DNA from: Escherichia coli O157:H7
GTDB lineage: Bacteria > Pseudomonadota > Gammaproteobacteria > Enterobacterales > Enterobacteriaceae
Length of the DNA: 64,000 nucleotides
Assembly: GCF_013167455.1 (NCBI RefSeq)
Contig: NZ_CP038328.1
Direction: 5' to 3' (one strand)
Position numbers: made by a program. The number at the start of each line of letters is the position of its first letter. Position 1 is the stretch's first letter. Below are positions 29,901 to 35,900 of this stretch, piece after piece.

Positions 29901-32900
29901 TGCGTTCCCTGGCTCGTTCTCCCTGCCCGTATCCCAGCAGTTCGGCTTCATTTGATGCACGCGCAGCCACATTATCATTCTTCAGGGTCTCTTCCCGGGA
30001 TCGCAACTGTTCCCGGATTTTTTGCTGGTCAATCAGGGCCGCGTTACGCAGCAGTTCCTGCTTCTGCATCTCCGTCAGGGTTTTCAGTTCGCCCTGCGCA
30101 GTCTGGTACTTCAGCTTCGCCAGCTCTGTATTCTGACCCGCCAGTGCCAGTTGCTCTTTCTGCTGCTTCAGTAGCCGGGAAAAACTGTCTTCCGCTTTTT
30201 CCGTCTCTGATTTTCCACCCCGGGATTTGGGTTTGTTCGCCTCGTTATTACGCCAGGCTTCCAGAGCATTACTGATATAACGCTGTCTCGCCTCCTGATA
30301 CGAATCACCCACAAAACCAAGGTCATCCGCCGCATACCCCAGCCGGACACGCTCTTTTTCTTCCCCTTTCAGTCTGGACAGGGCCAGCTCACGCTCTGTT
30401 TTTGTCAGGGCACTCTGCTGTTTATCATCCAGAGTGGCCTGTGGCAGCCGTAACGGCACATTCACCAGTCCCTGCCGCTGCTGAAGCAGTTCATTACCCA
30501 GCCCCAGCAGACGGTTGAATTCCGTATGCTGACCGTTCATAACCAGCATGGACTGGTACACCTTATTCTGCTCTGCCGCCTGCTGACGAATTAACGCCAC
30601 ACGACGGTCTTCCAGCCCGGCAAGCACATCCTGAATGGACTGCGCTTTTTCCTGCATCTGTGCCAGACGGGACTGCTCAACGGCAAGCTGCTCTGTTGCC
30701 TGAGAAAGCCCTTCCGTTACGGTCTTCACCGATGTCAGATGGTTTATCATGAATCCGTCACCGGTCGTCCAGCCCGGGTTCGCCAGAACATACTGATATC
30801 CTGCGATTTTTTCCTGCAGGGATTTCACCCGACTGGCCTGTTCATCAATCAGCCGGTTCTGCTCTGTCAGCGCCGCCCGTGTTCGTCCTTCATTATCTGA
30901 GGCTTCAGGCAAAGACATTGACGGCGTTTTATGCGCGATTTCATCTATCGTCAGTGCATACTGGCGCGCAGACTCCCTGGCCTGCTCCTGATTCTGGTAC
31001 AGCGTGTACCATGCTGCAGCCCCCAGCATCACCAGTCCGGGTACGCCACCAACCAGCCCCAGCGCACCGCTCATCAGACGTGAGCCCACCGCCGTTGTAC
31101 TGTTCAGCGCATTCTGGGCGGCGCTTCTGGCAGCAATATTTCTGTTCAGGCGTTCCTGTGTGGCCGCCAGACGGGCCTCTGCAGCAATCTGCATCTCCGT
31201 CCCGCGGGCTGCCGCCACGGCCTGCTGAGCACGGTACACGGCTGCCCTTGCCCGCGCCGTGGCAATCTGCGTTCCCCTGAACTGTGCTTCCGCCAGTGCA
31301 ACTTCATTACGTGCAGCCGTCACAAGTCCTGCCGTGGCAGACATCGCTCCGGAGGCCATATTGCCAAAGTACCGGGCAACCCCGACGGCAACCAGCGCGC
31401 CCACGGCTGTTGCCACATTATCAATCTGTCCGGCAACACCGTTCAGCATGCCGGAGAGCGTTTTTGTCACCCCGCTGGCCTCATTCGCACCGCCCACCCA
31501 GGCCATAAAGGCGTTTTCCACCTTTGTGATACTACTGGAAACCGTTTCCGGCATGGCCGCATATTCATCACGTAATATCCCCAGCTGGCTGATTAACGCG
31601 GGGACCACTTTATCCGCTGTCAGTTTTCCGTCATCCGCCATTGCCTTCAGATCTTTACGGGCCACGCCCATACCCGCAGCCAGTGCACGTACGATCCGGT
31701 CACCACTTTCATTGACCGAATTAAACTCCTCACCACGCAATACACCCTGCGCCAGCGCCTGACTGAACTGGGTGATCACCGAGCCCGCCTCTGCCGTACT
31801 GGCACCGGAGATTTTCAGCCCTGTCGAAATGGCCTCCGTCACCTTCAGCACATCATCAGCACTGTAACCATATTCACGCATCGAGGCAGCCGAACGGGCA
31901 AACAGGGCCGCATTATCCGAAAATGCGGTGCCTGTCCGCTGGCTGATATCCATCAGCACTTTCTGTGATGACGCAAATTCATCGGATGACTGTGATGCCT
32001 GTTTCAGACGGGCATTCACGGAGCTCCATTCATCCGCCAGCGAAATCAGGTGTCCGGTGGCAAAGGCACCGGCAAACGCACCGGTCATTCCGACAGCCGA
32101 AGCGCGGATTTCCGTCAACTGGCTGTGCAGCTCAGCCAGAGCCCGGCGCTGCTCCCTGGCTGCCGCAGCAGCCTGACGTCCGCCATTCTGCAGGGTCCGG
32201 TAATATTCACTGCCCATACGGGACGCCCGCTGGATCTCCGACTGGAATGACTGTGAATTTGCCGAAATTTTGATAATCAGTTCACGTAACGTCGCCATTC
32301 ACCTTTCTCCGGGCGTAAAAAAACCGCCTCAGCGGTTCTCATCATTCATGACTGTGCTGCAAAGCTCAGCGCGTCTTCCAGCGCCGCAAACGGATCCACC
32401 TCCGGCTTATCCTCATCCTCGCCCCAGCAGAGCATGGCGTCCTTCAGTGCAACATTCATCCCCTGTGCCCCGAAAACCGCTTTCACGATCTGTGCATTAC
32501 GGATATCCCCGCGCTCATCACCCAGCGGGGACACCCTGTCAAACTCCATCCACATCATCGCCTCGCTCGCACTCAGGCTGTGCCGCAGTTCGGATAAGGT
32601 GCGCCCCAGACGGAGCGCAAGTCGCATCAGAAAGCGAATTTCCGGGCGGGCTACTTTTTTCTGGCCGACTCTGCATCAGCGATCAGTTCCAGTGCCTGAC
32701 GCAGCAACCGGGCATGTACCGGACCATAGACGGCCAGCACCTGCTCACGGTCGTCCGGAGTGAACACCCGTTGCAGGTCAGTATCACACAGGACATCGCA
32801 GAACAGCGTCACATCCGCTTCCAGGTTACGGCGGGTTTTCGCCACCACCGACAGGGTATCGTCATCCTCTCCATCACCATTGAGCACTTCCTGCCACAGA

Positions 32901-35900
32901 TACCAGGCCTCTGCCGAAGGCTCCCGCAGCACCACGCTGACATTACCCCATTCCGGCACCTTCACCGTTTTATGACGAAACCCTGACAGTCTGGCCAGCG
33001 CCAGCGTTTTCAGATCCTTTTTCATGATGACCCATCCCCTTATCCGGCGGCTGCGCTCACTGTCACGGTGCATTCAACAGACGTCACACTCTGTGCTTTC
33101 TCTGCCGAATCGGTCACCACGCAGGTATATTTCCCCGCATCAGCGGACTGCGCACCTGGCTTACTGAAGGTGTCTGTCGTCTGCCCGTCAACCGGCTGAC
33201 CATCCTTCTTCCAGGCGTATTTATACGGCGGCGTTCCCCCGTTGGCACTGACTGACATTGTCAGCAGCGCACCTGTATTCACGGTAAGTGTTTTATCCAG
33301 ATTTTTCACAAACGCCAGCGGTACCACAAAGGACACCGGTTTGCCTTTCATACGCAGTGAAAACGTTGCTGCCACCACGCCGTTGGTACCGGATGACCAG
33401 GTGTGCTGACGCACTTCCGCCAGGAACTTAAAGCCCTTACCGGACGGAAACTGCACCTTAAACGCATACACCGTGTCATTGTCATAGGCATCACGCAGGG
33501 CGTTCTGGGCCTGATTCAGATAAAAATTACCCGACATGGAAATCTCGGACGACGCCCCCAGACCGTTGATGTTCTCCTGCTCTGTGGAGCAGAGCGTGGT
33601 CACATCAATATCCTGTTTCTGACCGGCGGTGAACTGGACTTCCTTGATGGTGCAGTCCAGGCGCAGATATTCCGCCTTATCCATAGTTTCAGCAGTCGCC
33701 GGGGCAGATGAAATCATCACCTGCGTCAGCTGTGAGCGTTCATACAAAGCAGACATTCTGCCTCCTGATAATAAAAAACCCGCACGCGGCGGGGTATGGG
33801 TTTTGTAGAAAAAAGAAAAAGTCACACCGTGACCTGAAACTCCAGGGTTGCACGGTAACAGCGGTTTTCCGGAATATAGTCCTGCATTTCACTGACGGAT
33901 CCCGGGGCCAGCAGCATTATGGCTTCACGGGCGTCCTGACGTATCTGACGCGCCTGCGTCACAGTCCCGGCATAAACGTCTATCTGCACCGACACTGAGG
34001 ACTCCGCCTGCCCGCCCATCACGTCCGCCGACACCGATGAAATCAGGCTGAAAACCACCCACGGAAGCGCCACCGACGGCCTGCCATCCAGCAGGGGGAC
34101 CACATACGGGTACACCTGCCCGCCGGCAAGATGCGCCAGATGAGGATACAAATCCGCCTCCGTCATCGTCTCAGTACCTCATCAATGGCCCGGTTCATCC
34201 GAGCAATCGCCACCTGAGCTGCCTGTTCACTGCGCACATCAAATGCCGGGCGCACAAACGGGTGCGGTGGCATATTCACGGTCCCCATTTCCACAAACCG
34301 CCAGTAGAAAGCATTGCGCGGGTTATCCGCCTTCATGGTGTTATCGCTGTTACCGGTGTCCGGATTAACACCCCGGATATGCACACCGGATTCCATCCCG
34401 CCATCGCGGGAGCACCGGGAAAGGACCACCACATTGCGGCGCAGTTTTCCCCTGCGTACCGGTGCCCGTGACACCACTTCTTCTTTCAGCACATTCGCAC
34501 CCGCACGGGTTGCCTCACGCAGCACCCGGTTATTTTCCGCACCACTCAGAAGCTGCAAATCGCGGCTGATGTCCTCCAGCCCCGAAAAATCCAGCAGGGT
34601 TTCGATCATTTTTCCCCTCCCAGCCGACAGAGAATTTCCAGACGCCCGCCGGTCGCATCCGGCACGGGCAGCCCGACAACGTTCAGGATCCGGTCACGCC
34701 ATGGACCACTCAGCACATGAAGTCGTGACGCTGCCGTGATTTCCCGGCCGGACTGACCGCGCACCCAGATGCGGATTTCCGCCTGCGCCATTTCCGCACC
34801 GGACTGCATCCGCTCCCGGCTGCTCCTGCCACGGATATCCGCATGAATTTTCCCGCATGACACCCATTCTTCCGTCATTTCTCCGGCAGCATTACGGGTT
34901 AACACCGGGTTCAGAACACTTATCATCTGTGTCAGACGACCTGCAGATATTGCCATTCCTCCCTCCTCATAACACCGTCGGACAACGCAAATCGTAAATC
35001 AGCACGGACACAGAAAACGGCAGTTCCCCCTGCACGAGGTCTTCCCGCTCAGCAAGATCCGGATTCCGGTACAGCATCCCGGTCAGTCGCATGGCAGCCC
35101 CCTTCATCCGGGTTAATGCCTCGCCCGGGATCAGCTCACCGTCCTCACGAATCACCTTATCCCGGCTGCCCTGAATGTAGGCCAGCAGCACGGCGGTAGC
35201 CTGACGAACCTTGTCCATCAGCATGTCATCATCCGCGTCATGGTCAACACGCAGATGTGCCTTGATCTCTTCCAGTGTCAGTAATGCCGTCATTTTCCGC
35301 CTCCTGCATCCCGTCCACGTTTTGCAGCCAGGGTCCAGCCTGATGAATGAGCTTCTCCGGGTTTATCACCGGTCATACTGTTGCAGTGCCACAGCGAGCC
35401 CCCCCACGTCACCGTATCGCCGGGGTGGTAGGTTTCACCGGCTCTGAACACACCGCGGTAGAGCATCACCGGCAGGGAAAATGTTTTTTCCGTACACCGG
35501 CCACTGCTCTGCCGGATCACCACAGAGAACAACCGCTCATCCGTCATGCTGACGTCGATATCCGCCACCCCGTCAACCAGGCATTCCCATCCCCGCATCC
35601 CGTGCGTTTTTTCATACGCCCGCCAGAGTCCACCCAGGTGTGTGGCATACGTGCCCCGGGGAAAGGATTTTTGATCGTCAATAGCGGGGAGCACTTCCAG
35701 TGCCGTGGCATCACGCCCGTCCTGCGGAGCCGGAAGGGCATTCACCGCCTCCAGAACCGCCTGCTTCAGTACTTCCGGATCGTAATCACGACCATCACGC
35801 GGAGCAGGGATATGGCTTACGGCCTCTTTCACCATCTGCTCAAGCATCGGACGCACATCATCGGGGGTGATACTTTTGCCGTCCGCCGGTACCGGAATAT

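Follow-up and report, generated by a model that had tools for sequence, protein, structure and literature searches.

The G protein and G-T fusion of phage lambda, the latter arising by a programmed -1 ribosomal frameshift at the junction of two tail genes, are said to have been studied by Levin, Hendrix and Casjens in 1993 and by Xu, Hendrix and Duda in 2004, 2013 and 2014. Here we analyse the corresponding G/T locus of a prophage in a stretch of 64,000 nucleotides (nt) from Escherichia coli O157:H7 (NCBI RefSeq assembly GCF_013167455.1, contig NZ_CP038328.1), which is called the window throughout. Lambda makes G and the fusion (GT) at a ratio of about 30:1; G binds the tape measure protein, T binds the major tail protein, neither G nor GT is found in the virion, and the T domain functions solely as part of GT (Atkins et al. 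2016). The heptamer A_AAA_AAG, present at the end of G in the window, belongs to the most shift-prone heptamers in E. coli, in which the sole tRNA-Lys pairs better with AAA than with AAG (Atkins et al. 2016).

The published measurement that bears directly on the locus comes from the GeneTack 'phage tail assembly chaperone' cluster (862991913), which comprises 41 predicted frameshift genes, is similar to an HK97 protein, and had two of its members assayed with a GST-MBP reporter in E. coli, yielding 6% and 7% (Antonov et al. 2013, NAR 41:6514, PMC3711429). The 7% insert (7% +/- 0.79 of -1 frameshifting, Table S2 of that paper) is identical in 75 of 75 bases to the window, i.e., the same allele was assayed, and the 6% insert is of the mEp390 type with the heptamer G GGA AAG (Table S2). 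Moreover, the database records of HK97, HK544 and Burkholderia phage KS9 annotate the homologous pair as a join by -1 programmed frameshift.

We are highly confident that the locus holds a programmed -1 frameshift of the G/GT tail-chaperone type and belongs to a lambdoid E. coli prophage; the best description is that of an HK97-type G/GT pair whose heptamer is of the dnaX type. The second product that matters biologically is almost certainly the G-T fusion of 226 amino acids (aa) and not a separate protein T. The locus is a member of a well-known class, its exact allele has already been tested in a published reporter, and it leaves the understanding of recoding or tail assembly unchanged.

The G/T locus and its predicted products

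The whole locus and the neighbouring tail genes lie on the minus strand in the order tube, G, T and tape measure, with the pair standing between the genes for the major tail protein and the tape measure protein (Table 1). The G open reading frame (ORF) starts behind a Shine-Dalgarno (SD)-like GGGGA, for which an anti-SD duplex of -8.4 kcal/mol was calculated. In the -1 frame, a TGA at 32678..32676 is followed by an open stretch from 32675 to the TGA of T, which gives an overlap of 22 nt with G and makes 102 more codons available to a ribosome that slips one base back at the end of G.

Table 1. Coordinates of the G/T locus and adjoining tail genes in the window
Feature	Coordinates	Strand	Description
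Major tail (tube) protein gene	33756..33040	minus	238 aa, C-terminal immunoglobulin (Ig)-like domain; directly upstream of G
G ORF	33025..32651	minus	ATG at 33025, 124 aa; product of standard decoding; ends ...GCC AGA AAA AAG TAG
Tested 75-nt insert equivalent	32680..32606	minus	identical to the insert of Antonov et al. 2013, Phage_TAC cluster, frameshift ID 15618692
Slippery heptamer A AAA AAG	32660..32654	minus	X XXY YYZ phase; the final two sense codons of G
G stop TAG	32653..32651	minus	abuts the heptamer directly
GT product	join(33025..32654, 32654..32346)	minus	predicted, 226 aa; G at 32654 read twice
T segment (-1 frame after the slip)	32654..32346	minus	102 aa plus TGA (32348..32346)
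Annotated T start ATG	32627..32625	minus	PGAP/GenBank begin a separate 93-aa 'tail assembly protein T' here
Tape measure protein gene	32298..29056	minus	1080 aa; directly downstream; Phage_HK97_TLTM 2.6e-89, TMP_3, Tape_meas_lam_C

These boundaries agree with the original prediction, whose span of 32346-33025 coincides exactly with the T stop and the G start, and our translations likewise bear out its reading of AGA AAA AAG TAG at the end of G with T continuing in the -1 frame. Re-extraction of the exact sequence, proposed there as a check of the heptamer position, recovered A AAA AAG in phase at the place given in Table 1. What did not hold was its suspicion of one extra base near 32580, by which local coordinates might be off by 1. 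The T frame runs uninterrupted through that position, T aligns without gaps across it to eight relatives, and the match to Phage_tail_T is continuous; furthermore, the 801 bases at 32300-33100 are 100% identical, ungapped, to four records of Shiga toxin (Stx) 1a-converting phages and to an E. coli chromosome. The extra base is an artefact of reading by hand, and the coordinates are not off by one.

The protein families of both parts are clear. G matches Pfam PF06222 (Phage_TAC_1) over profile positions 1-124 of 124 with an E value of 1.1e-61 and 206.7 bits (cutoff 25), and it also matches PHROG 344 'tail assembly chaperone' and the Protein Data Bank (PDB) entry 2OB9 'Tail assembly chaperone' (5.8e-55). 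The T segment matches Pfam PF06223 (Phage_tail_T) over profile positions 1-71 of 73 with 6e-19 and 68.7 bits (cutoff 25.9), a model on which lambda T itself scores 54.1 bits. The 224-position profile of PHROG 14766 spans G (positions 2-122) and T (positions 125-224) as one protein.

The kinship with lambda is confined to the second part. Window G gives no match to Pfam PF06894 (Phage_TAC_2), the family of lambda gpG, on which lambda G scores 206.9 bits, and its BLASTP comparison with lambda G is not significant (E = 6.3); BLASTP of T to lambda T likewise found nothing, and the relationship of the two T proteins is seen by profile searches only. The idea that G is lambda-type by descent was rejected because BLASTP finds no match to lambda G and the profiles show only the T domain to be shared. 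The term lambda-type, under which the locus had been announced, is thus appropriate to the mechanism and the T domain and not to the rest: G is of the HK97 gp13 family (Phage_TAC_1) instead of Phage_TAC_2, and the heptamer is the dnaX-type A AAA AAG with a direct stop, where lambda has G GGA AAG six codons before the stop. The further claim of a canonical tail-chaperone G/GT arrangement is upheld by the gene position, the in-phase heptamer in a short overlap, the homology of the T domain and the published 7% reporter value.

In the mechanism that we favour, most ribosomes would make the 124-aa G and stop at the TAG, and a minority would shift back one base on A AAA AAG, at which tRNA-Lys favours AAA over AAG. 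The slip may take place either in tandem in the P and A sites, or with peptidyl-tRNA-Lys in the P site and the stop codon in the A site. Shifted ribosomes would then read GTA GCC CGC... in the -1 frame and produce the 226-aa fusion, at about one GT per 13 G. By analogy with lambda, the G parts would coat the tape measure protein, which would be the binding partner of both G and GT, and the T domain would recruit the major tail protein. Both products would be needed for tail assembly and would be absent from virions, as is known for lambda. What the analysis itself shows is how the site is built, to which families its proteins belong, how well it is conserved and that it is identical to the cassette with the published 7%. 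The native production of GT in this phage, the proportion in which it stands to G and the part it plays in assembly are inferred.

Chance control and conservation of the slip site

The presence of the heptamer alone means little, because AAAAAAG occurs 28 times in the window as against 12.4 +/- 3.1 expected, and none of 100 dinucleotide-preserving shuffles reached 28. The geometry of the 0-frame and -1-frame ORFs was therefore measured for each of the 28 copies. A single one, that at 32660..32654, combines a long 0-frame ORF, an immediate stop and a long -1 frame: 138 codons are open upstream in the 0 frame, the stop follows straight after the heptamer, and the -1 frame opens no earlier than 5 codons ahead of the heptamer and stays open for 102 codons beyond it. 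Each of the remaining 27 copies either is out of phase or has no -1 ORF.

Conservation singles out the same copy. The combination of A AAA AAG TAG with a -1 extension of about 100 codons is retained in 78 of 80 related loci from IMG/VR, and in a clade of about 68% identity the four upstream codons occur in five variants while AAAAAAAAGTAG stays unchanged. The two exceptions, L070 and L054, carry single-base indels; L070 has one A fewer in an A8 run, L054 has its indel upstream, and each is a single contig.

The comparison was extended to eleven divergent phages with an in-phase heptamer at the homologous spot. A AAA AAG is shared by the window, phi467, Vibrio phage Pm34 and Burkholderia phage phi644-2, A AAA AAA is present in KS9, G GGA AAG in mEp390 and lambda, and G GAA AAG in HK97, HK544, LAU1 and ENT39118, while Klebsiella phage 1 LV-2017 has A GCA AAG TAA at this place. 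In the aligned sites, the invariant core is the A-site Lys codon with an A before it. The stop adjoins the heptamer also in phi467, Vibrio Pm34 and Klebsiella phage 1 LV-2017. The family thus illustrates the turnover of slip sites, with four heptamers alternating at one homologous position and the A-site Lys codon remaining constant.

This variety also bears on the origin of the shift. RNA polymerase can slip on homopolymeric A runs, and relatives of the phi467 type have a longer A8 run at the slip site, so the fusion might in principle come from transcripts that have gained one A in the run, without any shift of the ribosome. We regard this as highly improbable, for the run has just six A's in the window, as compared with about nine or more in the cited cases of productive slippage, and relatives with G GGA AAG or G GAA AAG keep the arrangement without a homopolymer, the former still giving 6% in the reporter. 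Moreover, the phase of the heptamer is conserved, which is relevant to ribosomes and not to RNA polymerase.

The same data address the possibility of a chance overlap or of a decayed gene, in which a frameshift mutation or a sequencing error has split a former single G-T gene. A few database proteins are indeed in-frame G-T fusions (P0001, P0002 and P0004), and the lack of one A in L070 could be read likewise. Nevertheless, of 5426 complete E. coli genomes 1245 show the same two-frame arrangement, Vibrio and Burkholderia phages show it in relatives as distant as 33% identity, and each fused database entry comes from one contig that also has extra indels or out-of-frame stretches. The breadth of this conservation effectively refutes chance or decay, to which we assign hardly any probability at all.

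The fused entries deserve a description of their own. P0001 reads ...ARKK-EIRFLM..., an in-frame G-T fusion that fits an 11-nt deletion, and P0002 and P0004 contain out-of-frame stretches. A collection of 5.8 billion proteins gave no evidence for a natural fused G-T gene: it held only four candidates, each from one contig and each marked by deletions, a double change of frame or truncation. For L070, L054, P0001, P0002 and P0004, each known from a single contig, assembly error and real variation are inseparable.

Stimulators, the adjacent stop and the annotated start of T

Known bacterial stimulators of frameshifting were sought around the heptamer. In the 25 nt upstream, the best anti-SD duplex has -3.0 kcal/mol, which is weaker than the background median and gives no sign of an SD-like stimulator. 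Downstream, a stimulatory RNA structure was rejected on the grounds that the 141-nt local fold is no more stable than shuffled sequences (z = 0.22) and that the consensus fold of nine aligned relatives reaches only -3.56 kcal/mol with virtually no covariation (covariation term -0.03). The sole conserved hairpin starts about 35 nt past the heptamer within the region coding for LALRxGR, and is too distant and too weakly supported for a stimulator. Since no stimulator was found, the efficiency of the shift would rest on the heptamer and the stop alone.

The stop itself could have a part in this. We tentatively consider, and on balance think it unlikely, that the TAG abutting the heptamer belongs to the signal as a 'shifty stop', so that the slip would occur mainly with peptidyl-tRNA-Lys on AAG in the P site and the A site awaiting RF1 at UAG. 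Three hints point in this direction: the adjacent TAG is kept in three of the four A AAA AAG phages compared, Klebsiella phage 1 LV-2017 retains just A AAG TAA without a tandem site, and the 7% reporter value corresponds to a GT share roughly twice that of lambda with its 30:1 ratio. If true, the ratio of G to GT, and hence tail assembly, would be tied to the efficiency of termination and not to tandem slippage alone.

Several observations weigh against the interpretation as a programmed frameshift. The 7% was obtained with a reporter in uninfected E. coli and not during phage infection. None of the upstream SD search, the local fold and the alignment consensus revealed a stimulatory element, a situation shared with lambda. 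Tandem slippage is not universal in the family, as Klebsiella phage 1 LV-2017 has only its A GCA AAG TAA. Lastly, the NCBI Prokaryotic Genome Annotation Pipeline (PGAP) and most GenBank records give T as a free-standing 93-aa coding sequence (CDS), and a Met stands at its annotated start in 8 of 9 aligned relatives, by which some independent initiation is possible.

The last of these points amounts to a different model, namely that T is an independent gene, translated by initiation at ATG 32627 or by reinitiation after the G stop 24 nt upstream to give a free 93-aa T, the heptamer being incidental. Klebsiella phage 1 LV-2017, with an ATG a few bases past the G stop and no tandem heptamer, would fit such a model. 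Against it, ATG 32627 has no SD above background: its anti-SD duplex of -3.5 kcal/mol equals the background median, while the starts of G and of the tape measure gene reach -8.4 and -6.6, respectively. The -1 frame is also conserved at the protein level before this ATG, since Pro128, which is encoded upstream of it, is invariant in all nine aligned fusions, and KS9 has Leu in place of the Met and a record that annotates a join. Furthermore, the identical 75-nt cassette yields a frameshift fusion product, the Phage_TAC cluster is absent from the authors' list of clusters with internal initiation (Antonov et al. 2013, PMC3711429), and the lambda T domain is active only within GT. The lack of an SD, the conserved upstream residues and the Leu of KS9 together make a free-standing T unlikely as the main product, and we consider an independent T gene quite improbable.

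On the frameshift reading, ATG 32627 is most likely the internal Met134 of GT, and the downstream ORF appears to have no efficient start of its own. A weaker possibility is that some free T would be made from ATG 32627 besides GT as a minor contribution. The Klebsiella phage calls for separate mention, as its G ends GCT AAA GCA AAG TAA (positions 1590-1610 of its locus, L008) with the T-frame ATG following within a few bases; its T may be reached when one tRNA-Lys alone slips at the stop, or through termination and reinitiation.

Prophage context and comparison with described systems

The 801-nt region is present in the 1245 E. coli genomes mentioned above. It also occurs with 95-100% identity in 92 phage records, the majority of which belong to Stx1a-, Stx2a- and Stx2c-converting phages and prophages related to them. 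PGAP and most submitters describe it by two CDSs, 'phage tail assembly chaperone' and, from ATG 32627 onwards, the 93-aa 'phage tail assembly protein T'. The main value of the present analysis is in annotation: the pair is split into a 124-aa chaperone and a 93-aa 'protein T' across all those genomes and in most Stx-phage records, and the entry to be corrected is that of GT, as join(33025..32654, 32654..32346) with 226 aa.

The genes around the pair are those of a complete tail and head. The tube gene, called 'major tail subunit' (717 nt) in identical records, encodes a product (translation of window 33040-33741) with matches to Pfam Phage_tail_2 / Phage_TTP_11 and to Ig_3 / Ig_2 / I-set. The tape measure gene is followed by lambda-like M, L, K, I, J and Lom and then a tail fibre gene, which make up a complete lambda-like tail module, and the head genes are HK97-like, with a protease-capsid fusion, portal, connector, head closure protein and gp10-like and gp17-like proteins. 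The prophage is of the lambdoid E. coli type with an HK97-like head and a lambda-like tail.

Three terminator-like sites were noticed next to the tail genes. In the late operon, a hairpin at 32317-32340 (minus strand) stands in the gap that separates the T stop from the start of the tape measure gene and has the form GAGAACCGC-UGAG-GCGGUUUUU followed by a U tail; the 55-nt stretch that contains it folds with -14.6 kcal/mol (z = -2.7), and a consensus terminator scan did not report it. HK97 and HK544 have a moron (gp15) together with an annotated terminator at the matching position, whereas the hairpin in the window has no moron ORF. The two other sites, at 33779-33793 and 33819-33835 (minus strand), are found a short way before the gene for the major tail protein, the position at which HK97 and HK544 have an annotated 'putative terminator' separating gp11 from the major tail subunit.

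The portal gene of this prophage, arguably of greater interest than the G/GT site, is broken in two at a G5 run at 36510-36535 (near 36530, minus strand), which reads ...TTC AGG GGG ATA CTG AGA AAA TGA. A 454-aa Phage_portal ORF (37874..36510) is followed in the -1 frame by a 407-aa ORF (36513..35290), both on the minus strand, with an ATGA overlap. In AP012539 the run is G6 and both ORFs are joined as an 859-aa 'portal protein', and PHROG 2271 covers both parts; PGAP calls the G5 form a frameshifted pseudogene. Both alleles are common, with G5 in 23 and G6 in 37 IMG/VR contigs by exact scans, at least 34 Stx phage records are identical at the G5 junction, and one and the same 800-nt flank haplotype carries both alleles. 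The G run also resembles an SD for the 407-aa ORF (-9.4 kcal/mol), and the portal fusion would be restored if tRNA-Gly slipped by -1 on G GGG. The split portal can be read as a pseudogene, as a two-gene arrangement or as a second recoding site, and a literature search on the split at the G run returned nothing specific. Within the 407-aa ORF, i.e., the C-terminal extension of the portal, 3.3 tandem copies of a 162-nt (54-aa) repeat with 97% identity occupy 35756-36288, for which Pfam gave sub-threshold matches only.

Farther away, three tRNA genes (Arg-tct, Arg-tcg and Met-cat) are located at 49667-49918 (minus strand) in the late-regulatory region of the prophage. Downstream of the cluster there is a 616-aa DUF1737/SASA esterase-like ORF (46643..48493), with a single ORF of at least 150 aa (167 aa) between it and the tRNA genes.

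Among the described systems, the pair gp13/gp14 of HK97, as well as those of HK544, HK446 and mEp234, belongs to the same families as the pair in the window. The G proteins are about 63% identical and both are of Phage_TAC_1 and match PDB 2OB9, T aligns throughout, and the gene order is the same. The recoding site differs, since HK97 uses the relaxed heptamer G GAA AAG (CGG GAA AAG) five codons before the G stop in an overlap of 49 nt, whereas the window has the strict A AAA AAG abutting the TAG in the 22-nt overlap. In HK97 the moron gp15 follows T and precedes the tape measure gene, a place at which the window has only the terminator-like hairpin.

Lambda shares with the window the mechanism, the gene position, the Pfam family of T (PF06223), the downstream genes M, L, K, I and J and the want of an evident RNA stimulator. 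Its G is of a different family (Phage_TAC_2), its heptamer G GGA AAG has the stop six codons on and not directly adjacent, its T is longer (144 aa), and its G:GT ratio of about 30:1 compares with about 13:1 implied for the window allele by the 7% reporter value. Another described system is dnaX of E. coli, from which tau and gamma are made with the same heptamer A AAA AAG, the same tRNA-Lys logic and in the same host. It shifts at about 50% with the aid of an upstream SD-like stimulator and a downstream stem-loop, whereas the window has 7% as measured and neither of the two elements detectable, and the shifted product of dnaX is the shorter one, whereas at the G/T locus it would be the longer one.

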